Below, piece after piece: positions 1 to 16,886 of a stretch of DNA of 41,699 nt. Numbering within the stretch: the first letter of the stretch is position 1; each line of letters begins with the position of its first letter. The position numbers and the translations under genes were made by a program. The DNA comes from Candidatus Bathyarchaeia archaeon (GTDB taxonomy: Archaea > Thermoproteota > Bathyarchaeia > Bathyarchaeales > Bathycorpusculaceae), in NCBI GenBank assembly GCA_038882655.1, contig JAVZNT010000007.1, positions 1 to 41,699 of the forward strand. The letters are read 5' to 3'. Under the pieces are notes generated by a model that saw only the letters and a program-made list of their open reading frames with translations, was not told the DNA's origin and did not search any database.

Positions 1-2
1 GT

Positions 3-659
3 GTTTTCGGTTCGCTTCTCCAAAGCTTTTACCATCCGAGGTTTTCTGACATTGACATAGTTGTTTATGGCAGGAAAAATTTGGAGCGGATACGAGAAAT
101 CCTACTAGAGCTTTACGTGGATAAAGGCTCGGGGTTTTCCAACGAGTTTGAGGATGACTCATCAATCAGAGGAAAGGCTTGGCACTTCAAGAACATAAGC
201 CCAAAAGAGTTTGTCTGGCACCAGAGGCGCAAAACTATCTACGGAGTTTTCCAAGACGAAGCCTCTAAAAGGGCTATTAAGGTTGAGTTTGAACCTGTTA
301 AAGGTTGGAGCGAAATCATCAACGAATACAGCCAAATTAAGAGGATAACCCGTGAAGGCTGGGTTAAGGCACTCCTATACGTAAAAGATGATTCTGAAGC
401 GCCTTTCATGCCCTCAATCTACCGTGTGGAGGTTGTCAAAATTGTTGAAGGCCCAAAAATTGAAGACTTGAGAAGAGTTGTCTCCTATCTTGAGGAGTTT
501 AGGATGCAAACGTGGAGCGACGAGACCGTTTATGCTGAAGGAAACCTTGAAAAAGTCGAGTTGCGAAACGACGAATGCTTCCACCAAATAACATTAACCT
601 ATGGACCGCGCTACTACGAGCAAGTTTTGAAAGTTGCAGAACCAACAGCCAAAAACTAG
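3..659 (+). CDS. Pol-beta-superfamily nucleotidyltransferase, COG1665-like (5'-partial)
   Basis: The frame of ORF 81..659 stays open to the window edge: nt 3-80 read VFGSLLQSFYHPRFSDIDIVVYGRKN (GS...SDID NTase motif). The C-terminus (DDSEAPFMPSIY...AEGNLEKV) resembles the neighbouring paralog. Confidence 0.8.
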   Translation, partial: VFGSLLQSFYHPRFSDIDIVVYGRKNLERIREILLELYVDKGSGFSNEFEDDSSIRGKAWHFKNISPKEFVWHQRRKTIYGVFQDEASKRAIKVEFEPVKGWSEIINEYSQIKRITREGWVKALLYVKDDSEAPFMPSIYRVEVVKIVEGPKIEDLRRVVSYLEEFRMQTWSDETVYAEGNLEKVELRNDECFHQITLTYGPRYYEQVLKVAEPTAKN

Positions 660-1681
660 TGCTTTAAAATCATGTAGTCTGCGGGTTTGTTTCCAAGAAG
701 CAGCCTAAAATGCTCACAGTCACTTCTATGATCCGTTACTTGTTCAAGCTTCCCCTGCGCCACGATAGTCTCGCCTTTTCTTGCTTGTTCGCAGAACCTT
801 CCGCGGAAGGATGCAATCTCCTTTATAGGCTCGATTTTTGGTCTATCAACAACCTTGACGTCTTCAATTTTGTATGTGCATGGCGTGAATATGGCTCCGG
901 CATCATCAACAACCGTAGCCTCGATTTTTGCATAGCCACAATTCTTGTAGCGGATATCACCATACTTTTCGCCAGTCTCATTCCAGTCCTTCACAAAACG
1001 GATGAAATAGTCTCTATCCATAAACTTGCCCTGAAAAACCTTCCTAGACTCGACTTTAACAAAGTCATCGAAGCTCATGAAAGTGTCTTTCGAACGAAAA
1101 GCGAAAAGTCTCCGCAAATCCCCTAAACTATAAGGCTTTAAGGGGCAAGAAGGTTCCTCAAATAAGGCTTCAATAGCTGAATGAACTTTCCTACAGTTTT
1201 CAGACCCGTAGACGATTAGATCGATATCCGAACTATTGGTATGCAAGCCAACCATAATCGAGCCTGAAGCCCCGATAGCATCCCATGAAATGCCAGCAGA
1301 AGATTTAAGCAGACACGCCATCTCCAAAACCGCGTGTTCTAAAGGGTCTAAGCTCTCAGCCTTTCGAAACCGTTTAAGCACTTCAACTGGCACATATGCT
1401 CTTTTAATATCACTTTTTGGGACTTCACATAGAACCTCGTCGAAAACTGAATCATAAACAAGATATTCTGGAAAATTCTCCTTCAACCAAGTATATCGTT
1501 GGGAAAGAGAATAAACCTTCTCATAAGATAATTCACCACGTTTTCTTTTGCCTGTTTTGCTTGGAAAATACCTTATGAAAGCTATTACTCTGTTTAGCGG
1601 GTGAACTACCCCTTTAACATCAAATATGAAGCCTTGGTTAGTTTCTATAAAGTCTCCTTCGCGAAACCTTCTTTCCATCAA
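656..1681 (-). CDS. Pol-beta-superfamily nucleotidyltransferase, COG1665-like
   Basis: GASGSIMVGLHTNSSDIDLIVYG motif; N-terminal REGDFIET...FDVKG..HP; C-terminal SFRGRFCEQA...GKLE. Confidence 0.8.
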   Translation of the reverse strand: MMERRFREGDFIETNQGFIFDVKGVVHPLNRVIAFIRYFPSKTGKRKRGELSYEKVYSLSQRYTWLKENFPEYLVYDSVFDEVLCEVPKSDIKRAYVPVEVLKRFRKAESLDPLEHAVLEMACLLKSSAGISWDAIGASGSIMVGLHTNSSDIDLIVYGSENCRKVHSAIEALFEEPSCPLKPYSLGDLRRLFAFRSKDTFMSFDDFVKVESRKVFQGKFMDRDYFIRFVKDWNETGEKYGDIRYKNCGYAKIEATVVDDAGAIFTPCTYKIEDVKVVDRPKIEPIKEIASFRGRFCEQARKGETIVAQGKLEQVTDHRSDCEHFRLLLGNKPADYMILKH

Positions 1682-1704
1682 GGGTCAAATGTCTGTATAT
1701 GTAT

Positions 1705-2655
1705 TTATTGTTTCTTGAAAATAAGACCAGCTTTATAGAGTCCGGAAATCAATCCTATCCCGACTATTGTAGCTATGACCGTCATCAGTATTCTTTCAAT
1801 AGCTGAAACTGGAACCATATACATGAACAGGGATGGCACGTCAGGCAATCCTAAAGGTTTGAGGAAATAATCCTCAACAACGCTGAGTGGTATGAAAATG
1901 TCTATTGTTCCTATGAATATTAGGTTTCCAAGCATGTGGTCAGCTATTATCCCGCAATAGCTGGCTAGGAAAACCGAGGAAATAAAGGAAAATCGCCCAG
2001 CTCCGAAAATTCCATACAGGACGAAGATTGCACCTATAATGTATAACGGAAGCGAAAGATAGTTTAAAGGAAGTGTTTCATTTAAGTAGGGTTTTGTGAA
2101 CATATAGCCAACAACAAACAGAATTACTCCGGAAAGTATGGAGGCTGGTTTCAACCGCCAACCCTCTTTTATTGCTTCTATTTCTTTGAATGAGTTTGCA
2201 ACCCAACCTCGCGTGATCAGAACAGAGAATAAGCCTGCAAAGTGGAGAACAGGATAGAATATGGCTTTTTGTCCAACCCATGTGGCATACCATCCAGCTA
2301 TTAAGGCTCCGAGGATCACTGCGGAAATGGGCCACCCTTGAATTTTGCTATTTTTTAAGATTTTATCTAATGTTAAGAACCCGGCTACCATGGCTGAGAT
2401 CGCTGTGCAGAAGGAGGTTAAAACGCTGAAGGGGCTTCCAGCGGCGATTAAACCGCCTATTAAAGCGGCTAGAAATCCTAAATATGGTCCAATTATCATT
2501 CCGTAGAGTGGAGCGATTGCTGCATCAAATTTTATGCTTGCGTCTGGAATTCCAACTATTGGTATTCCAGGTATAAACTTGCAGATTATAAATGAGAGCG
2601 CGGCGAAAATTGTTAATAGCGCCACGTTTTTCGCGGACAATTCAACACTTGCCAA
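1705..2655 (-). CDS. ECF transporter S-component-like membrane protein (enlarged)
   Basis: Multi-TM protein with LLTIFAAL and APLYGMIIGPYLGFLAALIG motifs. Start moved to TTG at 2655, which follows an AGGTGA Shine-Dalgarno. Confidence 0.7.
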   Translation of the reverse strand: MASVELSAKNVALLTIFAALSFIICKFIPGIPIVGIPDASIKFDAAIAPLYGMIIGPYLGFLAALIGGLIAAGSPFSVLTSFCTAISAMVAGFLTLDKILKNSKIQGWPISAVILGALIAGWYATWVGQKAIFYPVLHFAGLFSVLITRGWVANSFKEIEAIKEGWRLKPASILSGVILFVVGYMFTKPYLNETLPLNYLSLPLYIIGAIFVLYGIFGAGRFSFISSVFLASYCGIIADHMLGNLIFIGTIDIFIPLSVVEDYFLKPLGLPDVPSLFMYMVPVSAIERILMTVIATIVGIGLISGLYKAGLIFKKQ

Positions 2656-2684
2656 TTTTTCACCTATGTATTTTTGGTAATTGC

Positions 2685-2702
2685 TGTGTAATTTTTTACA
2701 CA
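2685..2702. promoter_or_regulatory. Inverted repeat TGTGTAA-TTTT-TTACACA, candidate operator
   Basis: Perfect 7-4-7 dyad between the divergent S-component and CitG-like genes. Confidence 0.5.
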
Positions 2703-2751
2703 ACGTTAATAAGCCTTTCCATGCAAACCCTATCGTAAGGTGCAATGTTTA

Positions 2752-3702
2752 ATGGCTTTCACGTTCAGCAAGGCTGAGCATGTTTCGCGTTGTTTGGAGT
2801 TGGCCATTCTTTTGGAGGTTAGTGCGGACAAGCCTGGGAACGTGAACTTGGTGGTTGGTTTTGAGGGCACCAATCACATGCATTTTTTGGCTTCTGCTGT
2901 GGCTGCGGCTCCCCATTTTAGGTTGGCTGCTGAGCGGGGCATAGCCGTTTTAAAAGGCGATATGAGTGTGAAAGATGTTGGTGTTGGAGGAATTATCCGC
3001 GATTGTGTAGCCGACGTGCATACCTGGCAGAGTGGCGGCAACACATTGCTCGGCACAATAATCCTTTTTATGCCTTTGGCTGTTGCGGCTGGCATCACAA
3101 CAGGTGAAAAAGGTGTTTTCAACCTTTCTGTTTTGAGGCAAAACCTGCGAAGGGTTGTTGAGGCAACAACGCCAGAAGATGCCGTTGCAGTTTATGAGGC
3201 TGTTGGGATTGCCAGGCCCAGCGGTTTGGGAAAAGCACCAGACCTAGACGTTGATGACCCAAACTCTGTGAAACGCATTATTGATGAGAGGATTTCGCTC
3301 TACCAGGTTTTTAAAATAGCCTCACCTTATGACATGGTTTGCTCAGAATGGGTTAACAATTACCCAGTAACCTTTGAATATGCCTATCCAACGTTGATGC
3401 GAAATCTTAAGGAGGATGGAGACCTAAACACAGCGATAATTCACACTTTCCTTGCTGTTTTATCCAAGCATCCAGACACCTTCATCGCGAGAAAGGTTGG
3501 ACTTAAAAGGGCTTGCGAAGTCTCAGTTATGGCTGAAGAAGTCTTGAAAAGCGGGGGGCTTAAAACCGCCATTGGAAGAGAAAGACTCCGCGAGTTTGAC
3601 GCCATGCTGCGAAAAGAAAGCAATCTATTGAATCCTGGAACAACAGCAGACATTATCGCGGCTGCCCTTGCATTAGCTGTGCTGGGCGGCTACAGACCAT
3701 AA
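2752..3702 (+). CDS. citG: CitG family triphosphoribosyl transferase (archaeal/methylotroph Orf7-like)
   Basis: LEVSADKPGNV, GGNTLLG, PDTFIARKVG and NPGTTADI motifs; ATG at 2752 preferred to GTG at 2740. Confidence 0.85.
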   Translation: MAFTFSKAEHVSRCLELAILLEVSADKPGNVNLVVGFEGTNHMHFLASAVAAAPHFRLAAERGIAVLKGDMSVKDVGVGGIIRDCVADVHTWQSGGNTLLGTIILFMPLAVAAGITTGEKGVFNLSVLRQNLRRVVEATTPEDAVAVYEAVGIARPSGLGKAPDLDVDDPNSVKRIIDERISLYQVFKIASPYDMVCSEWVNNYPVTFEYAYPTLMRNLKEDGDLNTAIIHTFLAVLSKHPDTFIARKVGLKRACEVSVMAEEVLKSGGLKTAIGRERLREFDAMLRKESNLLNPGTTADIIAAALALAVLGGYRP

Positions 3703-3861: not shown

Positions 3862-4269
3862 ATGGAAGAAAAGCCTAAGCTGAAAGTTACCTTGTTGACT
3901 GGGCGGACAATAGAGCAGGGTGCTGGAAAAGAGCGGGGAAAATCCTCCAAAGAGTATGTGGAAAGCGTTTCAGTCTGCTACGTGGACCCAGAAGACATGA
4001 AAAAGCTCGGCGTAAAAGATGGAACAAATATTCAAGTTTCAACAGCTTTCGGCTCTGTGGTGGTTAAAGCCGTTAAGTCTTTGAGGGCACCGCACAAAGG
4101 CGTAATATTTATTCCCTATGGTCTTTGGGCGAATGTTGTTGTTGACCCTGAAACCCACGGCATTGGAATGCCTTCTTTTAAGGGGATTCCAGCCACTGTG
4201 GAGCCAGCCCCGGACAAACCTGTTCTGGGCTTGGAGGAGCTTCTTAAAACAGTTTTTAGGAAGGATTAA
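3862..4269 (+). CDS. fwdD: Formylmethanofuran dehydrogenase subunit D
   Basis: LLTGRTIEQG, FIPYGLWAN and T.GIGMPSFKG motifs; first gene of a D-B-A-C operon. Confidence 0.93.
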   Translation: MEEKPKLKVTLLTGRTIEQGAGKERGKSSKEYVESVSVCYVDPEDMKKLGVKDGTNIQVSTAFGSVVVKAVKSLRAPHKGVIFIPYGLWANVVVDPETHGIGMPSFKGIPATVEPAPDKPVLGLEELLKTVFRKD

Positions 4270-4272
4270 TAA

Positions 4273-5730
4273 ATGCTAGTTGTCAAAGCTGTGACTTGCC
4301 CGGTTTGCGGAAGCCTATGCGACGACATAGAACTAACCATTGAGAAGGGGCACATAGTTAAGGTTAAGAATGGCTGTGCCATGTGTGAAGCCAAGTTTTT
4401 GGGCTACTGCAGCGAGCACCGTATTTTAAAGCCAATGATAAGGAAGAACGGAGAACTTGTCAAAACAACCCTTAAAGAGGCTATTAGAAGGGCTGCCGAA
4501 ATTTTGGCTGAAGCCAACTATCCGGTGCTTTATGGCTGGAGCAACACAAGCTGCGAAGCCATAAGCGTCGGCATAGAACTAGCCGAAGAGGTTGGCGGAG
4601 TAATAGACAACACCTCTGTTGTCTGCCACGGTCCATCAATTTTGAGCATCCAAGACGTGGGGATTTCATCATGCACTTTGGGGCAGATTAGGCACAGGGC
4701 TGACCTAATCGTCTATTGGGGAAGCAACCCTTGGAGTGCTCATCCAAGGCACATAGAACGTTACACAGCCTTTGCGGAGGGAAGATTCGAGAAAAGCGCG
4801 TGGAGAAGCTATGTAAACAAGGTTAAGACTATGGTTGGGCGGAAAAAGATTCAAAGCGCCATCAAAAGGCTATTCTTCAAAAAGCCAGCACCAGTTCCGC
4901 CACCAATTTCTGAGTATAAGCCCTACCCATCCATAGCCAAGGAAGGCAGAAAACTCATAGTGATTGACGTTAGACGAACAAGATCCGCTGAAATTGCAGA
5001 CTACTTCGTGCAAGTTGAACCCAACAAGGATTACGAGCTTTTGCAGGCTTTTAGGGCGCTGATTCGCGATCAAGAGCTTGAAGTTGACAAAGTGGCTGGC
5101 GTACCAGTTGAGTATCTGGAGGAGGTTGCCGACGCCATGGTCAGTTGTGACTTCGGCGCCCTGTTCTTTGGGCTTGGCTTAACGATGAGCAGCGGCAAAC
5201 TACGAAACATTGACGCTGCTCTCTCGCTGGTGCGGGATCTAAACATGAGAACAAAGTTTATCATAATGCCAATGCGAGGACACTTTAACGTGACTGGCGC
5301 CAACACCGTTTTTACTTGGCAGACGGGTTACCCGTACGCAGTGGACTTCTCCCTTGGCTATCCAAGGTATAATCCTGGCGAAACTTCTGTCGTTGATGTT
5401 TTGCTGCGGAAGGAGTCCGACGCCGCCCTAATAGTGGCTTCAGACCCGGCTTCAAACTTCCCTCGGAAGGCGGCTGAACACTTGGTGGACAACCCCCTAG
5501 TGGTTATTGACCCCCACATGAATGTAACAGCCCAAATGGCTGACGTGCTTATTCCATCTGCATTCGTCGGTATAGAAGCCTCTGGAACAGCCTACCGAAT
5601 GGACCACGTGCCTATACCACTAAAAAAGGTAGTGAACCCGCCAAGGGGGATACTTCCAGACGAGGAGATTCTTAGGCGAATCTTAGCTGAGGTTAGGAAG
5701 ATAAAAGAGAGGGAGGAAGAGAAAGCCTAA
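4273..5730 (+). CDS. fwdB: Formylmethanofuran dehydrogenase subunit B (Mo/W-bis-PGD)
   Basis: CPVCGSLCDDI 4Fe-4S motif, SVVCHGPS metal-ligand Cys (not Sec), PMRGHFNV, GTAYRMD. Confidence 0.95.
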   Translation: MLVVKAVTCPVCGSLCDDIELTIEKGHIVKVKNGCAMCEAKFLGYCSEHRILKPMIRKNGELVKTTLKEAIRRAAEILAEANYPVLYGWSNTSCEAISVGIELAEEVGGVIDNTSVVCHGPSILSIQDVGISSCTLGQIRHRADLIVYWGSNPWSAHPRHIERYTAFAEGRFEKSAWRSYVNKVKTMVGRKKIQSAIKRLFFKKPAPVPPPISEYKPYPSIAKEGRKLIVIDVRRTRSAEIADYFVQVEPNKDYELLQAFRALIRDQELEVDKVAGVPVEYLEEVADAMVSCDFGALFFGLGLTMSSGKLRNIDAALSLVRDLNMRTKFIIMPMRGHFNVTGANTVFTWQTGYPYAVDFSLGYPRYNPGETSVVDVLLRKESDAALIVASDPASNFPRKAAEHLVDNPLVVIDPHMNVTAQMADVLIPSAFVGIEASGTAYRMDHVPIPLKKVVNPPRGILPDEEILRRILAEVRKIKEREEEKA

Positions 5731-7421
5731 TGGAGCTTCTAATAAGAAACGGGTTTGTTTACGACCCCATTAACGGCGTTGACGGAGAAAAAATGGACAT
5801 AGCCGTAAAAGACGGCAAAATAGTTGAGAAAGTCAACGAGCGAAGAGTCAAGAAGATAGATGCTTCTGGGATGGTCGTTATGCCCGGCGGGGTTGACATT
5901 CACAGCCACATAGCCGGCGGCAAGGTCAACGCTGGAAGGCTTCTGCGCCCAGAAGACCACTTTAAAGATTTTGAGCGGAAAACAACCGTCACAAGGTCTG
6001 GTGTGGGCTATTCTATTCCGTCCACTTTTACTACTGGCTACCGCTACGCAAGGATGGGTTGGACAACAGTTATGGACCCAGCTATGCCGCCTTTAGAGGC
6101 GAAGCACACGCATGAGGAGTTAAGCGACACGCCCATAATTGATAAGGCTAGTTATCCGCTGATAGGCGACTGGTGGTTTGTCCTCGAATACTTACGAAAC
6201 GGCAAAATAGAGGAATGCGCTCGTCACGTGGCTTGGATGATTAAGGCGACTAAGGGTTATGCGATAAAGCTTGTAAACCCGGGTGGGCTTGAGGCTTGGG
6301 GTTTCGGACGTAACGTGAAGGATATAGATGATCCGGTTCCATACTTTGGAATCACACCTCGCGAGATTATCCGCGGGCTATGCAGGGTTAATAAGCTTCT
6401 AAACCTGCCACACACAATCCATGTGCACACAAACAACCTTGGGAAGCCAGGCAACTACGTGACAGCCCTAGAAACAATGAAGTGCGTGGAAGATCTAGCA
6501 GAAGACAATAAGCCAGTAATTCACATAACCCACTGCCAGTTCAGCGCCTTCAAAGGCGACGACTGGAGAACCTTCGAATCCGGAGCGGAGGAAATAGCCA
6601 ACTACGTTAATGCACACTCCCACGTGACAATGGACATGGGGCAAGTAATATTCACAGACACCACAACAATGACGGCTGACGGCCCATTCCAATACATACT
6701 CTACACTTTAAGCGGAAACAAGTGGGTGAACCACGACGTTGAAACAGAAACAAGCGCCGGAATTGTGCCATTTCACTACAAAAGGAAGAGCTATGTCCAT
6801 GCAACACAATGGTCTATTGGGCTGGAACTAGCTCTCCTAATTAAAGACCCGTGGAAAATCTTGATGACAACGGACCACCCCAACGGTGGACCATTTATTG
6901 CTTATCCGAGGATTGTGGCTTGGCTTATGAGCAGAAAAGCCAGAGAAGCCACGCTGAAAAAGATTAATCCGAAAGCCAGAAGCAGAAGCCTCCTCCCAAC
7001 AGTAGACCGTGAATTAGGCTTCTATGAAATAGCCATAGTGACAAGGGCGGGGCAAGCAAAAGCCCTAGGGCTTAAAAACAAGGGACACTTAGGTGTCGGC
7101 GCAGATGCAGACATAGCCATATACAACTTTAACCCAGAAATCACCGACCCATCCAAGAAGTATAAGTCTTTGAGGAGGGCTTTCAAAAGGGCAGCCTACA
7201 CCATTAAAGGCGGACAAGTGATGGTCAAAGACGGCAAGGTCCTAAAGCATATTGATGGGGCAACCATGTGGCTGGATGTGCAAACCAGCGAAGAGGCAAA
7301 AATAACAGAGGAAATGAGGAGACGATTTAAAGAGTACTGGACGGTGGAGTTTGAGAACTATCCAGTAAGTGAGGATTATTTGGCAATTTCCAAACCAATA
7401 ACCGTGAAGGCTGAGGTATAA
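5730..7421 (+). CDS. fwdA: Formylmethanofuran dehydrogenase subunit A
   Basis: Amidohydrolase metal ligands DIHSH, KLVNPGG, HVHTNN, HITHCQF and TTDHPNGG all present. Confidence 0.96.
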   Translation: MELLIRNGFVYDPINGVDGEKMDIAVKDGKIVEKVNERRVKKIDASGMVVMPGGVDIHSHIAGGKVNAGRLLRPEDHFKDFERKTTVTRSGVGYSIPSTFTTGYRYARMGWTTVMDPAMPPLEAKHTHEELSDTPIIDKASYPLIGDWWFVLEYLRNGKIEECARHVAWMIKATKGYAIKLVNPGGLEAWGFGRNVKDIDDPVPYFGITPREIIRGLCRVNKLLNLPHTIHVHTNNLGKPGNYVTALETMKCVEDLAEDNKPVIHITHCQFSAFKGDDWRTFESGAEEIANYVNAHSHVTMDMGQVIFTDTTTMTADGPFQYILYTLSGNKWVNHDVETETSAGIVPFHYKRKSYVHATQWSIGLELALLIKDPWKILMTTDHPNGGPFIAYPRIVAWLMSRKAREATLKKINPKARSRSLLPTVDRELGFYEIAIVTRAGQAKALGLKNKGHLGVGADADIAIYNFNPEITDPSKKYKSLRRAFKRAAYTIKGGQVMVKDGKVLKHIDGATMWLDVQTSEEAKITEEMRRRFKEYWTVEFENYPVSEDYLAISKPITVKAEV

Positions 7422-8260
7422 TGTTGGCAAACCTGTACCCGTTAAAAGAGTTTAAACTGCCAATAATGGCTGAATGCATAAACCCAGACATCTTCCAGGG
7501 GAAAAAGCCGAAAGAAATCGAGAAGCTGGAGGTTTGGGAAGGGAACAAGCAAAAAAGGCTTGGAGAACTCTTCAAAGTTGAAGTGACAACCGCGGAAAGC
7601 ACCTCAGAAGCCAATACAATAACTATCCAGGGGAACGTGAACTGCGTGAGGCGAATAGGCGCCGGAATGAAAAGCGGTGAAATAGTTGTTAAAGGCGACG
7701 CTGGCATGCACTTGGGCGAAGAAATGCATGGCGGAAAAATAACAGTGCACGGCAATGTTTTAGGCTGGGCTGGCTCCATGATGAAGGGAGGAACAATAGA
7801 AATTCACGGGAGTGCCGGCGACTATTTGGGTGCGCCTTATCGCGGAAGCACAGAAGGCATGAAAGGCGGAAAAATAATTGTATATGGAAACGTTGGAAAT
7901 GAAGCCGGAGCCCACATGAGAAAAGGCATAATAAAAATTTACGGAAATGCTGGGCAGTTTGTAGGCTTCAAGGTGCATGGCGGCACAATTTACGTACAGA
8001 AAAACTGTGGCGGGAGAGCTGGAGCATGCATGACGGACGGAACAATAATCGTTGGTGGCTTCTTGGAATCTATCCTTCCAACATTCACAATTGAAGGCAT
8101 AAGAAAGAAGGCTAAAATTGAAGAGGGCGAAGTTGTGGAAGCGTCCTTCTACCTTTTCCTCGGAGACCTAACAGAAAACGGTAAGGGAAGACTTTACGTG
8201 GCTAAAGAACCCAACCCCCACCTAAGCCACTATGAAAAACTTCTCTATAGAGAAGGGTAA
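7421..8260 (+). CDS. fwdC: Formylmethanofuran dehydrogenase subunit C
   Basis: GXGXG beta-helix repeats (GxxMxGGxIxxxG) and GAPYRG...GM.GG. Confidence 0.95.
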   Translation: MLANLYPLKEFKLPIMAECINPDIFQGKKPKEIEKLEVWEGNKQKRLGELFKVEVTTAESTSEANTITIQGNVNCVRRIGAGMKSGEIVVKGDAGMHLGEEMHGGKITVHGNVLGWAGSMMKGGTIEIHGSAGDYLGAPYRGSTEGMKGGKIIVYGNVGNEAGAHMRKGIIKIYGNAGQFVGFKVHGGTIYVQKNCGGRAGACMTDGTIIVGGFLESILPTFTIEGIRKKAKIEEGEVVEASFYLFLGDLTENGKGRLYVAKEPNPHLSHYEKLLYREG

Positions 8261-8264
8261 GCCG

Positions 8265-9227
8265 ATGAATAGCGGTTTAAGCGTAAACCGTTTGGCATGG
8301 AAACTACTGGAAAAACTTTGTGGCGACCCCGAATACTACGGCGTGAAAGTTGAAAGGTCGGAGTGCGAAGCCATAATTGTTGACGCTGGAATAAATGTGC
8401 GTGGCGGCTTCCAAGCTGGCAAAGTTATAACGGAAATCTGCATGGGAGGATGTGGAAAAGCCAGAATAGGCTTTTGGCAGTATGGCGAATTTGAGCTTCC
8501 AACAATATTTGTTTACACAGATCACCCAGCAATATCCACTCTAGGCTCCCAGTTTGCAGGATGGAACATTAAGGAGGGCGACTACTTCGCCATAGGCTCT
8601 GGACCGGCGAGAGCCCTAGCTCAAAGACCAAAGGAGATCTATGAGAAGATAGGCTATAGGGACGAGTTTGAAAAAGCCATAGTGGTTTTAGAAACCGACA
8701 AAGTTCCGCCTGAAAGACTTATGCGGAGGCTGGCTGAAGATTGCCACATTCAATGTGAAAATCTAGCGTTAATCTTGACTCCGACAGCAAGTCTAGCCGG
8801 AGCAACACAAGTAGCTGGAAGAATAGTTGAGACTGGAATCCACAAACTCTCAAAGCTTGGCTTTAACCCAAACGCAATTCTTTATGCTTGGGGATGCGCC
8901 CCCATACCGCCAACTCACCCAAAATTTGTCAAAGCTATGGCTAGAACCAACGACGCTATCCTATATGGAGGCATAACCCATTATATTGTTGACTATGAAA
9001 ACGAAGAAGAACTTGCCAAAATAGTGGAAAAGGCACCATCAAAAGCATCAAAAGACTATGGCAAACCCTTCATGGAAATCTTCAAAGCCGCCAACTACGA
9101 CTTCTACAAAATAGACCCAAACATATTCGCACCAGCAAAAATAACAATAAACAATGTAAGAACAGGCAAAACGTTCAATGCGGGAGAAGTCAATGTTAAA
9201 ATTTTAGTGAACGCCTTGATAAGCTAA
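8265..9227 (+). CDS. mch: Methenyl-H4MPT cyclohydrolase
   Basis: LSVN, EICMGG, GSQFAGW, GSGPARAL, RIVETG, RTND.ILYGG, FYKIDP..FAPA motifs; ATG at 8265, just after the fwdC stop. Confidence 0.95.
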   Translation: MNSGLSVNRLAWKLLEKLCGDPEYYGVKVERSECEAIIVDAGINVRGGFQAGKVITEICMGGCGKARIGFWQYGEFELPTIFVYTDHPAISTLGSQFAGWNIKEGDYFAIGSGPARALAQRPKEIYEKIGYRDEFEKAIVVLETDKVPPERLMRRLAEDCHIQCENLALILTPTASLAGATQVAGRIVETGIHKLSKLGFNPNAILYAWGCAPIPPTHPKFVKAMARTNDAILYGGITHYIVDYENEEELAKIVEKAPSKASKDYGKPFMEIFKAANYDFYKIDPNIFAPAKITINNVRTGKTFNAGEVNVKILVNALIS

Positions 9228-9802
9228 TTAGTTTGGGTTTTAGCGTATAGTTTTACAGCCTCTGCTATCACATGACCTAACGGAACAGTGTAAAGTGCCA
9301 GCGTAGCATTAAAAAACGCGATGAATGGGAGAGCCGCCATTACTGCTTCTTCTGGCATTGCAAACCCAACCGGCGGCGGAAACCGCAGGAAAGCCCAGTT
9401 AATCACTGTCATAATTCCTACTCTAAAGACTATACCGAAAGCCGTAAGCACAAATGCCAATGTCCGCCTGTCTGCTTGAGGGTTTTTATGAATGATTTTC
9501 GGTATGGAGATGCCTATAAGCATGCTTATCACCGCTGCCAAATTATAGAGCGGACCGGTTAACAGCATGCCTGGAAAAACCATGAGTAATACGAGCGTAT
9601 TTAGTGCTGCGATAGCTATTCCGGCTATGAAACCGTAAAGAAGGAATGCTGCAACTATTGGAATTTCCCACACTTGATATATTAGGTATGGCGCGTAGGG
9701 TGCTGGTATTTTTATTGGAGAAAGATTAAGCGAAATTGTGAGTGCGGCGAATACGGCTATAACGGCTATTGTTTTGACACGTATCCTAACATTTTTTGTC
9801 AT
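9224..9802 (-). CDS. ECF transporter S-component
   Basis: 192 aa, about 6 TM; IAVFAAL, P.APYL.Y..WEIP and FNAT.A motifs of the RibU/PanT-like fold. Substrate unknown. Confidence 0.75.
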   Translation of the reverse strand: MTKNVRIRVKTIAVIAVFAALTISLNLSPIKIPAPYAPYLIYQVWEIPIVAAFLLYGFIAGIAIAALNTLVLLMVFPGMLLTGPLYNLAAVISMLIGISIPKIIHKNPQADRRTLAFVLTAFGIVFRVGIMTVINWAFLRFPPPVGFAMPEEAVMAALPFIAFFNATLALYTVPLGHVIAEAVKLYAKTQTN

Positions 9803-9870: not shown

Positions 9871-9938
9871 AAAAATAAGTACAGTTTAACACTTTAAAAT
9901 TTAATATGACTTTTGTCTATCTCTATTTGGGAGAAGCT

Positions 9939-11195
9939 TTGTCAACAAGCCTTAAAATCGCTTTCCATGAGCTTAGGAACTGGCTTGAGGGCGAAACCGG
10001 CGCCGTTCTCAGTCCGGTGCATGCTAAGGCTGAGAGGCTTCTAGGCGAGATGCGGGAAGCCCACCAAGACTTGATTGAGGCTTGCCACATGCTTTTAGAG
10101 AGCAGCCGAAAAGAAATTGAGAAACGTAACATGCGCACTTTTAAGAGGGCTCAAGCCCTAAACAAACTTGCCAAAATCTTCCTTGAAAGGATGCAGCCGC
10201 TTAAGGTTCCTGAGAAACCATCCTTTAACGATGTTGAAAATTTTGTTAACGCCGCCCAGAAGGTTTATGCTGTCACGGATGTTGATGTCAGAAACTGGTT
10301 TCCAAGAATTTCGCCCTTCTTCATAATGGATAGGGGAAAATTTTTAAGGGTTTTTGAAAGCGCAAAAGGTTCGCTTAAGGATGTTAGCGAGTTTTTAACA
10401 AAAGAGTATGTTAAGGCTAAGGTTTTGGAGGAAACCTTCCAGTTCATAGAAGAGGTTAATAAGTTGAAGGAGCGGGCGGCGGCTCTAAGAGAGAAAAGAA
10501 AGAGGACTGAAGCTGAAAGGATGAAAGTTGAGGAGGAGATGGCTGACGTCCACCGTAGGATTGTTGAGCTTGAGAAAAGTGGCGGGTTAAGCCACTTGGC
10601 AGAGTTAGACGAAGCAATAGGCAGATTAAGAAGGGAAGCTGAGTACTGCCTTAGGCACCTTCAAAAGCCTCTAATAAAGCTTCAGTCGCTTGCTTCTCAT
10701 GGTGAGGGGAGCGGCTTAACACCTGAAGAGTTGAAAAAGCTTAATCATTATTTGGAAGATCCTTTTGAGGCTTTAGCTACAGAAAATTTAGGATATCCGC
10801 TTTTGAGGCAGATTCTTCAGAAAGCAATGCGGCTTATGGCTGAGGGCAAGCTTAAACTTAAACCAGATAAGGAACGCAAAGCGAGACAAGCCATAGAAGA
10901 AATCCTCAATAAGGATTCGCTTGCAAGCCTATATCAAAAATGCGTGGACGCCAACCAGCGTAAAGCCCAACTCTCGGCATCCTTAACCTTAACCGAAGCA
11001 AAGAGCGAAATGGCAAAGCTAAATGAGCAAAATGATAGGCTGAAGAAAAAGGCTGAAAGCTTGGAAGCTGAAATAGAGGCGGCTGAAAAAGGCTTAAAGG
11101 ACGTTGCTGCGAAAATTCTCGAGTGTAAAAGCCGCATGGAAAAGAACATCCTCAACTTTTCTGGGAAGAAAGTTGAAATAGCCATCGAGGTTTGA
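9939..11195 (+). CDS. Hypothetical coiled-coil protein
   Basis: E/K/L/A-rich heptad segments, no Walker motif. Likely TTG start at 9939 after GGGAG; the ORF is open from 9906. Confidence 0.75.
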   Translation: MSTSLKIAFHELRNWLEGETGAVLSPVHAKAERLLGEMREAHQDLIEACHMLLESSRKEIEKRNMRTFKRAQALNKLAKIFLERMQPLKVPEKPSFNDVENFVNAAQKVYAVTDVDVRNWFPRISPFFIMDRGKFLRVFESAKGSLKDVSEFLTKEYVKAKVLEETFQFIEEVNKLKERAAALREKRKRTEAERMKVEEEMADVHRRIVELEKSGGLSHLAELDEAIGRLRREAEYCLRHLQKPLIKLQSLASHGEGSGLTPEELKKLNHYLEDPFEALATENLGYPLLRQILQKAMRLMAEGKLKLKPDKERKARQAIEEILNKDSLASLYQKCVDANQRKAQLSASLTLTEAKSEMAKLNEQNDRLKKKAESLEAEIEAAEKGLKDVAAKILECKSRMEKNILNFSGKKVEIAIEV

Positions 11196-11205
11196 GGCAG
11201 AGGTT

Positions 11206-12138
11206 TTGCAGAAGCCAGATCTTAAACAAATTGTCAAAGAAGCCTTCGAAGCCACCTGCTGGGATTTCTGCCGCATCGTTCAAGAGGCAAGAGAGCTAAT
11301 CTGCAAGGAAAATGGGCGAATCGGGAATTTTGAGGTTATCGGGAGGATTGTTAAGCTTTCGCCAGTCGGCGGGGCACTGGTTGTTGGGGACTTGCACGGC
11401 GACCTAGAAAGCCTAATAGAAATCTTAACCAGAAGCAATTTTCTAAATAAGCTAAACCAAAACTCAAATGCAACAATAATTTTTCTCGGAGATTATGGCG
11501 ATAGAGGCCCCTTATCCGCTGAAGTCTATTACACAATCTTGAAGCTTAAGCTACACTTTCCAAGGCAGGTAATCCTAATGAGGGGAAACCATGAGGGACC
11601 AGAAGACCTTTTGGCTTCGCCCCACGACCTGCCATGGCAGCTCCAAGCAAAATTCGGCAACGTGTGGCAAGAAGCTTACAAGGAAATCTTCAAACTTTTC
11701 AAGTGCTTATATAACGCTGTGGTTGTTGAGGAACGCTACCTAATGGTTCACGGCGGTGTGCCGCCACAAGCAAAAAATTTAGAGGATTTAGCCCACGCAC
11801 ATGAGAGGCATCCAAAAGAAAGCCTTTTGGAGGACATCCTCTGGAGCGACCCAAACGAAATGATAAATGAAACGTGCGCTTCGCCTCGCGGAGCAGGAAA
11901 ACTTTTCGGGCAAAAGGTCACGGAGGTAGCCCTACAAAACTTCGGCGTTAACGTTCTCATAAGGGGACACGAGCCCTGCGAGGAAGGCTCCAAAATAAGC
12001 CATAATGGGAAAATCCTAACACTATTCTCGAGGAAAGGACCGCCGTACTTCAATCTTAACGGCGCATATCTGGTAATAGAGCTTTCCAAAAAACCGAGAA
12101 ATGTCAGAGAACTAATATCGTATGTCTATAGGTTCTAA
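11206..12138 (+). CDS. PPP-family Ser/Thr protein phosphatase
   Basis: GDLHGD, GDYGDRG, RGNHE, HGG, LWSDP, SPRG, IRGHE and TLFS motifs. Confidence 0.9.
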   Translation: MQKPDLKQIVKEAFEATCWDFCRIVQEARELICKENGRIGNFEVIGRIVKLSPVGGALVVGDLHGDLESLIEILTRSNFLNKLNQNSNATIIFLGDYGDRGPLSAEVYYTILKLKLHFPRQVILMRGNHEGPEDLLASPHDLPWQLQAKFGNVWQEAYKEIFKLFKCLYNAVVVEERYLMVHGGVPPQAKNLEDLAHAHERHPKESLLEDILWSDPNEMINETCASPRGAGKLFGQKVTEVALQNFGVNVLIRGHEPCEEGSKISHNGKILTLFSRKGPPYFNLNGAYLVIELSKKPRNVRELISYVYRF

Positions 12139-12976: not shown

Positions 12977-13855
12977 TTGAAGTTTGGAATTGTTACGCGA
13001 AACCCAAACGCCTACAGTTCAGCCCAGCTTCGTGAGGCACTGTCTAGACGCGGAATACCTTACGTCTGCTTTAGTTTTCCTTGGATCGTTGCTCGTGTTG
13101 GGTATAAGCCCTACCTAAATGTTAGAAGCGTTGATGTTTTGAAGGATTTGGATGCCTTAATAATCCGTCCGATTGGGCGGGGCTCTTTGGAGGAGATTGT
13201 TTTCCGTATGGATTTGCTTTACCGTCTTGAAAGGCTTGGCTTTTATGTCGTTAATCCGCCAGAAGCCATTGAACACTGTGTTGACAAATATGATTTGCTG
13301 GCGATTTTGGAGGATGCTGGCATACCAGTGCCGCGGACCGCTGTTATGGAGGATGCCGACGAAGCTTTGAGGGCTTTTCATGAGCTTGGCGGAGACGTTG
13401 TTCTTAAGCCCATTTTCGGCTCTAGGGGGATGGGCTCAACACGCATAAACGATCCAGAAGTAGCCTACACAGCCTTTAGGGCCATAACTTTCTATCATGG
13501 CGTAATCTACCTTCAAGAGTTTGTGCCTCATGGATGTTCTGATATCCGCGCCTTTGTTATAGGCGACCGTGTTGTCGCCGCCATGCGCCGCGTCGCCCAA
13601 AGCTGGAAAACTAACTACAGTCAAGGAGCCCGCCCAGAACCAATAAAACTTGACAATCAACTGGAAGATTTAGCCATAAAATCCGCCCAACTAATAAAAT
13701 GCAAAATTGCAGGAGTGGACATCCTAGAAAGCCCAAAAGGTCCGCTGGTGGTAGAGGTTAACAGCCAACCTGGATGGAGGGGCTTACAATCTGTCACGCG
13801 GGTCAATATTGCAGACGAAATAGTCGATTTCGTGCTTTCGGAACTGAAAAAATAG
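12977..13855 (+). CDS. RimK/MptN-family alpha-L-glutamate ligase (ATP-grasp)
   Basis: GSLEEIVFRMD.L, DKY, VLKPIFGSRG.G, YLQEFV, DIRAFV, WKTN..QG and EVNSQPGW motifs; C1-cluster context suggests cofactor glutamylation. Confidence 0.85.
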   Translation: MKFGIVTRNPNAYSSAQLREALSRRGIPYVCFSFPWIVARVGYKPYLNVRSVDVLKDLDALIIRPIGRGSLEEIVFRMDLLYRLERLGFYVVNPPEAIEHCVDKYDLLAILEDAGIPVPRTAVMEDADEALRAFHELGGDVVLKPIFGSRGMGSTRINDPEVAYTAFRAITFYHGVIYLQEFVPHGCSDIRAFVIGDRVVAAMRRVAQSWKTNYSQGARPEPIKLDNQLEDLAIKSAQLIKCKIAGVDILESPKGPLVVEVNSQPGWRGLQSVTRVNIADEIVDFVLSELKK

Positions 13856-15622: not shown

Positions 15623-16336
15623 CTATTTTTCCTTTAACAGTTCTATGCCTTTGCTGGTTATGCGGAAGGGAATCCACTCCAACGGATGTTCGCACCCTTC
15701 TATTTTGACTATGCGGAGTTCGCGGCGGCATTTCTCCTCGTTGAATCTGAAGAGGAAGATGTTGTGTGCCTTGTTAAGGTCTAGGTCTGTCGCCCGTTGT
15801 GTGGCGATGTCCTTCTGGGTTGCAGCCGTCATAATGTCAATGTTAACAATGTTGTCGTAGTGACACCAGTTAATCGTCCAATCCTCAACAGGCTCCATAT
15901 ACTTTAAATCGTATAACGCAAAAAGCTGCTCACTGAAATCCCCAGCCGCAAACCTTGTCACACCCTTTTCAGAAAGCAACCGGTCAATACATTTCATTTC
16001 TTCAAAGTCTTCTAGGCTGAAATAGATTACTCGCGGGTCTTTTGGATAAGGCTCAAAATGGGGAAAAGCCTGAATGGCGATAAACCTACCATTCTCAATG
16101 TACGGTTCAATGTTCCAGCCGAAAGACTTGAAATAGGCTATAAGCCTTGGAAAAGGCTTATCCATAACATCATAAGCCACGGTTTCGCCTTCGCACAAGC
16201 CTTGCCATAAAAACTGCATGGCAAAAACAGTTTTGCCAGTTCCCGGCGGACCGTAAAGAATGTTCCTTGAGCCAGACTCGATGCCACCTCCTATTAACTC
16301 GTCGAAACCCTTGATGCCAGTTTTAAGCTTAGCCAT
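15623..16336 (-). CDS. Single-domain KaiC/RAD55-like P-loop protein (degenerate catalytic motifs)
   Basis: KTGIKGFDELIGGG, Walker A GPPGTGKT and C-terminal RELRIVK..G..H....PF.IT.KGI; ATG at 16336 follows AAGGAG. Confidence 0.85.
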   Translation of the reverse strand: MAKLKTGIKGFDELIGGGIESGSRNILYGPPGTGKTVFAMQFLWQGLCEGETVAYDVMDKPFPRLIAYFKSFGWNIEPYIENGRFIAIQAFPHFEPYPKDPRVIYFSLEDFEEMKCIDRLLSEKGVTRFAAGDFSEQLFALYDLKYMEPVEDWTINWCHYDNIVNIDIMTAATQKDIATQRATDLDLNKAHNIFLFRFNEEKCRRELRIVKIEGCEHPLEWIPFRITSKGIELLKEK

Positions 16337-16349
16337 TTTCGCTACTCCT

Positions 16350-16886
16350 TTAAAGGAATATTTTAAGCAGTTTACTTTCATGCAGTAGGAATATTATGTA
16401 GATGCTTATGGCAAGTTCCGGCAGTATATAGCTTCCATTGTATATGGCTGAATAAATCACTGGATGCATTCCTTCAGGGGCGTAGCTGGCGAAGAAAATT
16501 ACTCCTGAAATAAAGTGGGCTAGGAAACGTCCCCAAATTCCAGCATTAACGCCCACAAAGGGACGATTACGGAAAAACCCGGCCAATCCAAGAGCGCCGA
16601 AAGCCAAAGGATAGTCTAAAAGCACCTGAAGCGGATGAACAATAAAGGGCTCAACAGCCAACTGCACAAGCCCATATACAGCAGCTGCAAACAACCCGAC
16701 TTTTGGGCCTCTTCGCAAAGCCAGCCAAAGTATAGGCACCATAGAGCCAGCCGTTACAGACCCGCCTTGTGGAAGACTGAAAACCTTAATGTAGCTTAGA
16801 GCTGTTGCAAGCGCCACAAAAGTTACAACTTCAGCGATTATCTTAGTTGGAGAACTGATTTTAGGCTCTAAACTTTTCTCGTTCAC
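16350..16886 (-). CDS. thiT: Thiamine ECF S-component ThiT
   Basis: PQGGSVT, HPLQVLLDYPLAF, HFISGVIFFASYAPEG and YSAIYNGSY motifs; TPP riboswitch directly upstream. Confidence 0.93.
   Translation of the reverse strand: MNEKSLEPKISSPTKIIAEVVTFVALATALSYIKVFSLPQGGSVTAGSMVPILWLALRRGPKVGLFAAAVYGLVQLAVEPFIVHPLQVLLDYPLAFGALGLAGFFRNRPFVGVNAGIWGRFLAHFISGVIFFASYAPEGMHPVIYSAIYNGSYILPELAISIYIIFLLHESKLLKIFL

Follow-up and report, generated by a model that had tools for sequence, protein, structure and literature searches.

Four genes at the start of contig JAVZNT010000007.1 from a Candidatus Bathyarchaeia archaeon (assembly GCA_038882655.1) encode two nucleotidyltransferases (NTases) of the DNA polymerase beta (Pol-beta) type, a membrane protein resembling FolT-like substrate-binding (S) components of energy-coupling factor (ECF) transporters, and a CitG-like protein. 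The stretch analyzed, hereafter the window, comprises positions 1 to 41,699 of this contig. We propose, at a probability of about 0.5, that the NTases, the S-component, and the CitG-like protein form one conserved module that completes a methanopterin-type one-carbon (C1) cofactor for the neighboring formylmethanofuran dehydrogenase (Fwd) and methenyl-tetrahydromethanopterin (methenyl-H4MPT) cyclohydrolase (Mch), and that in this organism the module probably also serves salvage. We have good confidence in assigning the module to the methanopterin-type cofactor pathway; the exact CitG/CitX-like chemistry set out below, which is reasoned by analogy, is slightly more doubtful than the module itself. 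In what follows, G, L, and f numbers denote genomes, loci, and families within a sample of Thermoproteota. The window is contig C7 of genome G000 (family f1), which is 1.02 Mb in size and 84% complete.

The module and its conservation in Bathyarchaeia

NTase-B (positions 3-659, plus strand) is cut at its 5' end by the contig start, which leaves the C-terminal 218 residues (aa) of an NTase with an oligonucleotide/oligosaccharide-binding (OB) fold (PF01909, 3.3e-5). NTase-C follows on the minus strand (656-1681, 341 aa); its three domains are a beta domain at the N-terminus, a palm of the Pol-beta type, and an OB fold at the C-terminus. Next come the gene for the S-component-like (S-like) membrane protein (1705-2745, minus strand, 346 aa), whose matches to ECF S-component models fall below threshold, and the CitG-like gene of the triphosphoribosyl-transferase family (2740-3702, plus strand; PF01874, 4.1e-70). 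The formylmethanofuran dehydrogenase genes fwdD, fwdB, fwdA, and fwdC (3862-8260, plus strand) match TIGR03129, TIGR03121, and TIGR03122 above cut-offs, with FwdD the best NCBIfam match for the first gene of the run, and they are followed by mch (8232-9227, plus strand; PF02289, 1.2e-123; TIGR03120, 4.7e-120). Gene calls and Pfam and NCBIfam scans agree in placing the four-gene set directly upstream of fwdDBAC-mch, as in the original prediction from the sequence.

That prediction counted two NTases. Both are present, but the paralogs in fact number three, the third being NTase-A (345 aa) at L002:49-1086 on contig C12, upstream of a full-length, 361-aa copy of NTase-B at the contig end (L002:1074-2159) that is 87% identical to the window fragment. 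The last 1022 bases of C12 (C12:32195-33216, L002) match window positions 1-1022 at 88%. Because relatives carry single copies, in the order A-B-C-(S)-CitG, C12 and C7 most likely represent one locus from two co-assembled strains and not a true duplication. The divergent S-like and CitG-like genes, taken as longest open reading frames (ORFs), share six bases at their 5' ends (window 2740-2745). Since S-like orthologs are 316-337 aa long, the true start of the S-like gene probably lies some 25-30 codons inside its longest ORF, leaving a short shared promoter region.

The arrangement is widely conserved among relatives. Scanning genomes that represent species, we confirmed 586 relatives and examined the 80 best loci; 79 are labeled Bathyarchaeia or Bathyarchaeota, and one (L101) is labeled Acidiferrales bacterium. 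Counting only loci with sufficient flank, and measuring from NTase-C, we found CitG within 2.5 kb at 62 of 70 loci and FwdD within 5 kb at 51 of 61, so the NTase-CitG-Fwd arrangement is not a product of chance. An S-like gene adjoins NTase-C at 50 of 70 loci and NTase-B does so at 61 of 71, while NTase-A lies within 2.5 kb at 64 of 71 and Mch within 10.5 kb at 40 of 48.

Linkage to methanopterin genes in other Thermoproteota

Synteny of NTase and CitG, which the original prediction expected in relatives, proved to be conserved far beyond Bathyarchaeia. Of the 90 genomes with both genes, at least 24, drawn from at least 10 families, have them no more than 2.5 kb apart, a pairing comparable to that of citG and citX, which adjoin and overlap in Escherichia coli. 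The Sulfolobaceae (family f24) genomes G110 (L119) and G038 (L135) carry an overlapping head-to-tail operon of DUF1464, NTase, CitG, and Metallophos_3. A small gene also follows the NTase in two genomes of family f10, G046 and G134, and in G046 it encodes Metallophos_3.

The most extensive link to pterin synthesis occurs in G029 (f6), where a co-directional string runs mptE-like, mptH (similar to dihydropteroate synthase, DHPS), mptA (GCHY-1), mptD (dihydroneopterin aldolase, DHNA), NTase, NTase, with the last genes separated by 22 nucleotides or overlapping. The mptH product combines DUF6513, Pterin_bind, and PterinBD, and DUF447 and mptG face the string; elsewhere in G029, DUF1464 directly follows an mptG paralog (L149:3289-5443). 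In family f22, CitG and mptG are spaced 4-11 kb apart in all nine genomes, as exemplified by G106, in which mptA and mptG lie 4 kb from a DUF447-CitG pair. G183 (f8) groups an S-like gene, CitG, mch, and an Mtd-like gene.

One gene fusion points in the same direction. P0153, a 505-aa cluster representative, joins a bacterial-type hydroxymethyl-dihydropterin pyrophosphokinase (HPPK; PF01288, 3e-40, residues 8-134) to an NTase (residues 170-503) that is 41% identical to the window's. A metagenome scan for the genes around this fusion yielded just two HPPK genes, both unrelated and neither with an NTase in the vicinity. In family f3, where NTases are present and CitG and mptG were not found, G125 carries an M20 peptidase fused to an NTase (769-aa ORF, L148:1850-4159), and in G053 an M20 peptidase adjoins an NTase (L140:2518-4991). 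M20 enzymes include folate and p-aminobenzoate-glutamate hydrolases, and the link hints at re-tailoring of scavenged glutamylated cofactors, although it is only a lead because the M20 family is broad. No fused NTase form of 598 aa or more turned up in a search for such proteins, which is weak evidence.

Distribution across Thermoproteota

Every query was run against one and the same evenly sampled set of 201 Thermoproteota genomes. The NTase profile matched in 100 genomes, CitG in 91, Mch in 50, and the synthase of beta-ribofuranosylaminobenzene 5'-phosphate (beta-RFAP), the first committed enzyme of methanopterin synthesis, in 71 at E<=1e-15 (54 above the curated cut-off). NTase and CitG occur together in 90 genomes, NTase alone in 10, CitG alone in 1, and neither in 100. 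Every genome with beta-RFAP synthase (71/71) also has an NTase; 29 genomes have the NTase without the synthase, and 101 have neither. When beta-RFAP synthase or Mch is taken as the marker, 96 genomes have both marker and NTase, 4 have only the NTase, 4 have only the marker, and 97 have neither. The expectation that the NTase family would track methanopterin genes is therefore borne out within Thermoproteota. NTase matches are only weak (1e-6 to 1e-17) in nine of the 71 synthase-positive genomes; the weak matches in G142 turned out to be two adjoining, divergent true family members (probabilities 96.3% and 95.8%).

Family-level matches by themselves are no proof of the cofactor. The Haloferax volcanii control genome is positive for CitG, Mch, and the beta-RFAP synthase model, yet haloarchaea are argued in print to be without methanopterin-specific enzymes and to use tetrahydrofolate, and the Haloferax mptG-like gene is reportedly argued, in Supplementary Text S1 of PMC8305020, not to make RFAP.

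The CitG-like protein and its missing client system

The window's CitG-like protein belongs to the CitG family, scoring 237.1 bits against PF01874 (cut-off 27) over profile positions 2-283 of 284. In an hhalign comparison, a profile of 18 CitG-like sequences, with the window's first, matched E. coli CitG at a probability of 97.8% across 249 aligned columns. Against the NCBIfam equivalog models for CitG and MdcB, the protein scores 49.7, 43.0, 38.7, and 33.1 bits, through matches confined to its C-terminal third, whereas the respective cut-offs are 280, 282, 272, and 477. Because these scores fall so far below the cut-offs, the protein is best classed, judging by sequence, as a separate subfamily within the CitG Pfam family.

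The original prediction reported no citrate lyase or malonate decarboxylase genes in the window, and this holds for the whole genome. The acyl carrier protein (ACP) of CitD/MdcC type and CitF (PF06857, PF04223) were found in none of five genomes, and CitX and MdcG (PF03802, PF10620) in none of six, the window genome being included in both sets; the E. coli control genome was positive for ACP, CitF, and CitX.

The nucleotidyltransferase family

The NTase paralogs are about 30% identical to one another (31% for NTase-C and NTase-B). PF01909 matches paralogs A and B above its cut-off and gives weak matches that include the Sulfolobaceae member, while NTase-C has no Pfam or NCBIfam match at E<=0.01. 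The catalytic G-S...D-x-D motif is intact in each of the three paralogs. In an alignment of 69 sequences, paralogs included, the residues G137, G140, S141, S151, D152, and D154 are invariant, as are P267, Y270, G310, and E313 in the OB domain.

An AlphaFold model of NTase-C built from the 69-sequence alignment has a predicted local distance difference test (pLDDT) score of 96.3; a single-sequence fold with a pLDDT of 36 was set aside in its favor. In the model, residues 1 to about 108 form the N-terminal beta-rich domain. The predicted palm (residues 109-232) is nearest to Pol X, Pol beta, TUT7, and GLD-2, with Z scores of 7.0-7.9, and TRAMP is also among its nearest relatives. The predicted OB fold (residues 245-341) is nearest to SSB, RPA, the MCM N-terminal domain, and the anticodon-binding domains of aminoacyl-tRNA synthetases (aaRS), with Z of about 8. 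Scores in this range (7-8.7) are at a common level and name folds, not functions. The palm fold together with the G-[GS] and D-x-[DE] motifs places the protein in the Pol-beta superfamily. It has the palm and the G-S...D-x-D motif in common with Pol X, the terminal uridylyltransferases (TUTases), and the aminoglycoside NTases, from which it differs in its N-terminal beta domain, its OB fold, and its cofactor-biosynthesis gene context.

Searches of the PDB by sequence, with a single sequence and with a profile, returned nothing significant, Foldseek with the model found no match at E<=0.001, and no solved chain matched the whole set of beta domain, palm, and OB fold. Neither CitX nor MdcG (PF03802, PF10620) matched the NTase-B fragment or NTase-C at E<=0.01, or full-length A, B, or the Sulfolobaceae NTase at E<=0.1. 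The family is large: among candidates of similar length, 3556 proteins matched at E<=0.001, and a separate search found 1040 clusters at 50% identity. We therefore treat the NTase, on sequence grounds, as a Pol-beta superfamily member in an uncharacterized family outside the CitX and MdcG families. A full-text literature search for "COG1665", the name used in the original prediction, found no match.

The FolT-like protein and possible salvage

The window S-like protein matches PF07155 at 24.6 bits, under the cut-off of 26.7, and TIGR04518 (folT_fam) at 6e-4, and 21 of 26 relatives match PF07155 at E<=0.01 (best 2.4e-9). Searched against the PDB, a profile of the 26 proteins found a folate ECF transporter (4z7f, 4.4e-7), a "conserved hypothetical membrane protein" (5d0y, 2.4e-5), and a folate S-component (5d3m, 8.3e-4), with no other match at E<=1. 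The likeness to FolT has limits. The S-like proteins are 231-346 aa long, versus 184-199 aa in solved FolT chains, the alignment covers only their N-terminal half, and a simple hydropathy scan of the window copy gives about 8 hydrophobic segments. The S-like protein thus appears to be a divergent, enlarged FolT relative. A gene for EcfT/CbiQ (PF02361) is present in four of the five f1 members (G013, G148, G061, and G190) and was not found in G000, which is 84% complete.

Three f1 genomes, G000, G013, and G148 (84-100% complete), gave no match for mptG, Pterin_bind (DHPS-like), DUF447, MptE-like, or DHNA (MptD). In G061 and G190, mptG, Pterin_bind, and DUF447 are present and form one operon. 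The MptE-like and MptD searches were negative in all five f1 genomes, the mptG-positive G061 and G190 included, and are therefore uninformative there. The window organism has thus retained Fwd, Mch, CitG, the NTases, and an MptN-like ligase, while no searched gene for building the pterin-arylamine core was found, a gene content consistent with uptake of a precursor that bears the pterin and later modification of its tail.

Several observations weigh against the salvage part of this reading. None of 40 further close relatives (L037-L078 minus L054 and L069, out of the 80 loci) has mptG, and several of them also have no S gene in the slot beside CitG and NTase. S-like orthologs flank the DUF447-mptG-mptH operon in G061 and G190, and more distant S-like relatives are present in families where both CitG and NTase are missing. 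The original prediction of a module for tail building or salvage stands as to the pathway, through the mpt string, the HPPK fusion, and the likeness to FolT; the S-component, in contrast, is no clean substitute for de novo synthesis, given orthologs that flank mptG.

A strict replacement of mptG by the S gene was considered and rejected. At first, eight of eight loci with a slot S gene were without mptG and nine of 12 loci without one had mptG. The 40 further genomes, uniformly without mptG and in several cases without a slot S gene, rule out such a swap, which is further undercut by a slot S gene in G141 that BLAST had missed at first and by S-like paralogs beside mptG in G061, G190, G155, G162, G176, G037, and G069. 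At least three S-like subfamilies fill the CitG/NTase slot in different genomes, and in a tree an mptG-side copy of G061 is sister to a slot copy (support 98/93), inside a CitG-slot clade. It is safe to say that the S-component family has been repeatedly recruited beside methanopterin genes.

Two f2 genomes (G021 and G197, 97-98% complete) have Mch and two to four S-like genes, while CitG, NTase, and beta-RFAP synthase were not found in them. These organisms may rely on finished cofactor from outside.

Other genes in the window

Adjoining mch is a second, small S-component-like membrane protein gene (9224-9802, minus strand), which matches PF07155 at 2.8e-4, below its cut-off, and recurs beside mch in part of the 80 Bathyarchaeia loci. 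A gene for a 429-aa conserved protein and one for a metallophosphoesterase (PF00149, 8.9e-26) follow together (9906-12138, plus strand), and the pair recurs beside mch in relatives; the 429-aa gene is present at 26 of the 80 loci, a count limited by flank length. The 429-aa protein has no family match and no PDB relative, and a relationship to DUF1464 was rejected upon comparison. The 429-aa gene is a further candidate for a step that has no assigned enzyme.

An ATP-grasp ligase gene (12977-13855, plus strand) has as its best match the MptN model NF040720 (1.1e-79), at 267.6 bits against an equivalog cut-off of 350; its membership in the RimK family (TIGR00768) is clear, at 221 bits against a cut-off of 143. 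An FdhD gene is encoded further downstream, and ten larger ORFs scanned past about 20 kb of the window yielded nothing related. A thiamine S-component (Thia_YuaJ, 6.8e-49) is encoded beside a KaiC-like ATPase (15623-16886), which fits a lifestyle reliant on vitamin uptake.

Discussion

Methanopterin ends in an alpha-ribofuranosyl 5-phosphate, carried on ribitol and diester-linked to 2-hydroxyglutarate. To our knowledge, these late steps, the addition of the alpha-ribose 5-phosphate and of hydroxyglutarate, have been without assigned enzymes for decades. CitG forms an alpha-glycosidic bond between the triphosphoribosyl group of ATP and a hydroxyl of dephospho-CoA, after which a serine hydroxyl of the carrier protein attacks the alpha-phosphate in the reaction of CitX or MdcG, and pyrophosphate is released. 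The analysis shows gene content, a modeled fold, conserved linkage, and co-distribution with methanopterin genes; by analogy, we infer the following steps for the module, together with the acceptor, the imported compound, and the parts played by the three paralogs. An S-component served by a shared ECF energizing module would import a pterin-bearing precursor, an import proposed because pterin-arylamine core genes were not found in the genome. The CitG-like enzyme would then place 5-triphospho-alpha-ribosyl from ATP on the free ribitol hydroxyl, with release of adenine. One or more of the OB-fold NTases would use the resulting triphosphate in place of a nucleoside triphosphate (NTP); a hydroxyl acceptor, which in classical methanopterin would be 2-hydroxyglutarate, would attack the alpha-phosphate to give the ribose-5-phosphodiester and pyrophosphate. 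With a substrate that resembles an NTP, this last reaction would be ordinary Pol-beta chemistry. The tail may be lengthened by the MptN-like ATP-grasp ligase, and the recurring metallophosphoesterase could act either before these steps, by exposing the ribitol hydroxyl, or, in cases where no diester forms, by trimming the triphosphate.

The CitG/CitX and MdcB/MdcG systems resemble the module in having a full-length CitG homolog paired on the chromosome with an enzyme of the phosphodiester-forming type, and the two proposed steps would be shared: a triphosphoribosyl transfer, and then attack by a hydroxyl with release of pyrophosphate. They differ in that no carrier protein, lyase, or decarboxylase was found here, in that the acceptor here would be a small molecule and not a protein, and in that the window NTase, with its extra N-terminal and OB-fold domains, has no detectable relative in CitX or MdcG. 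A second parallel is found in methylotrophs, some of which use dephospho-H4MPT, a form that lacks the phosphodiester. In passages of the literature used (PMC3615186, PMC11533326, PMC9982363, PMC8305020, PMC6787355, PMC6193120), the CitG-like orf7 and orf5, an alpha-L-glutamate ligase comparable to RimK/MptN, cluster with mch, as given by the designation mch-orf5-orf7 for Methylosinus and by a gene list for Methylomonas; M. extorquens is described as using dephospho-H4MPT, and no NTase or S-component is listed in those islands. The link of a CitG-like gene to mch, on which the original prediction drew, is thus already in print. What would be new is a non-homologous partner for the CitG-type enzyme in the CitG/CitX logic, the use of that logic on a small-molecule cofactor, and its connection with a dedicated S-component. 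A literature search, in which older work is sparsely covered, found no paper tying a nucleotidyltransferase to methanopterin biosynthesis.

A bolder version of the proposal can be offered only tentatively. The NTase family would be the phosphodiester enzyme of methanopterin-type cofactors, acting on a triphosphoribosylated intermediate that the archaeal CitG-like enzyme makes from ATP; many Bathyarchaeia, having lost the entire pathway to the pterin-arylamine core, would be methanopterin auxotrophs that import a fragment bearing the pterin through a dedicated FolT-like S-component and rebuild or re-tailor the tail; and paralogs A, B, and C, in some lineages with a fused M20 peptidase, would set lineage-specific tails.

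A number of findings count against the proposed module and its chemistry. The NTases showed no detectable likeness in sequence to CitX or MdcG: the 69-sequence NTase profile aligned to E. coli CitX by hhalign at a probability of 0.7%, and the Pfam models gave no match. The analogy is drawn from the chemistry and from the pairing of the genes. The OB fold and Pol X/TUTase-like palm of the model are typical of nucleic-acid enzymes, and three paralogs are not explained by one phosphodiester. G183, which is 98% complete, has CitG beside mch, and no NTase was found in it. The statistics of co-occurrence reflect few independent gains or losses, since families f9, f13, f15, f18, f20, and f26 hold 87 of the genomes with neither gene. 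The named NTase homologs among the matches listed (120 and 48 rows, plus atlas rows) are all from Thermoproteota, and among 14 control genomes DUF1464 was matched only in Sulfolobus acidocaldarius, so the NTase may serve a Thermoproteota-specific tail rather than classical methanopterin. In addition, cell-extract work by R. H. White reportedly pointed to phosphoribosyl pyrophosphate (PRPP) as the ribosyl donor and to a separate ATP-dependent hydroxyglutarate step. CitG, finally, was not detected in 10 of the 100 NTase-bearing genomes, and a clade-specific CitG profile found nothing in five of these (G009, G065, G053, G125, and G045; 90-100% complete), which argues that NTases are not strictly dependent on CitG.

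These last two points count in favor of a different chemistry in the same pathway, which we think rather unlikely overall but to which we still give appreciable weight. The NTases would then transfer AMP or GMP from an NTP to a methanopterin intermediate or to the hydroxy acid, at a phosphate or hydroxyl, while CitG acts separately and earlier, and a second enzyme or paralog would resolve the activated species into the phosphodiester. CofC and CofD work in this manner for F420, by nucleotidyl activation followed by phosphodiester formation. A need for a separate ATP at the hydroxyglutarate step would follow naturally, as would the presence of two or three NTase paralogs per genome, often adjoining, and every link between the module and the pathway counts equally for this scheme. 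The tight and widespread adjacency of NTase and CitG, overlapping in Sulfolobaceae, is nevertheless explained most simply by consecutive steps, and the triphosphoribosyl product of CitG would already bear a leaving group.

Outside the pathway, the structural neighbors of the NTase model, with SSB, RPA, MCM-N, and aaRS anticodon domains nearest to its OB fold and Pol X, TUT7, GLD-2, and TRAMP nearest to its palm, would suit enzymes that act on RNA or DNA, for example in tRNA tailing or modification, with the linkage to CitG and pterin genes reflecting ribosyl-phosphate modification of nucleic acid or co-regulation. Families f22, f17, and f32 have an NTase pair away from cofactor genes, and in f22 the pair at L127 lies near Pus10 and PmbA/TldD. 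All the Z scores are middling, however, an NTase occurs in all of the beta-RFAP synthase genomes, and the mptE-mptH-mptA-mptD-NTase-NTase string, the HPPK fusion, and the FolT-like neighbor are hard to account for in this way, so we consider such an activity improbable. Still less probable is a true system of the CitG/CitX type, in which a phosphoribosyl-linked prosthetic group would be attached to a serine of an unrecognized carrier, possibly an Fwd-associated protein. It would explain why a CitG member is paired with an enzyme of the phosphodiester-forming type, as in the adjoining E. coli pair, but the carrier and partner searches described above came back empty in every genome examined, and the pair is kept in Sulfolobaceae, where Mch was found in 0 of 7 f24 genomes.

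We therefore return to completion of a methanopterin-type cofactor by the NTases and the CitG-like enzyme as the preferred reading. It provides named, clonable candidates, namely the CitG-like enzyme, a new family of OB-fold NTases, and their companions, the metallophosphoesterase and DUF1464. The hypothesis is directly testable because the operon is also present in Sulfolobaceae, which can be cultured and genetically manipulated. For the organisms themselves, the findings suggest that the widespread sediment Bathyarchaeia with the H4MPT branch of the Wood-Ljungdahl pathway depend on scavenged cofactor precursors, a dependence that would bear on how Bathyarchaeia are modeled and cultivated.

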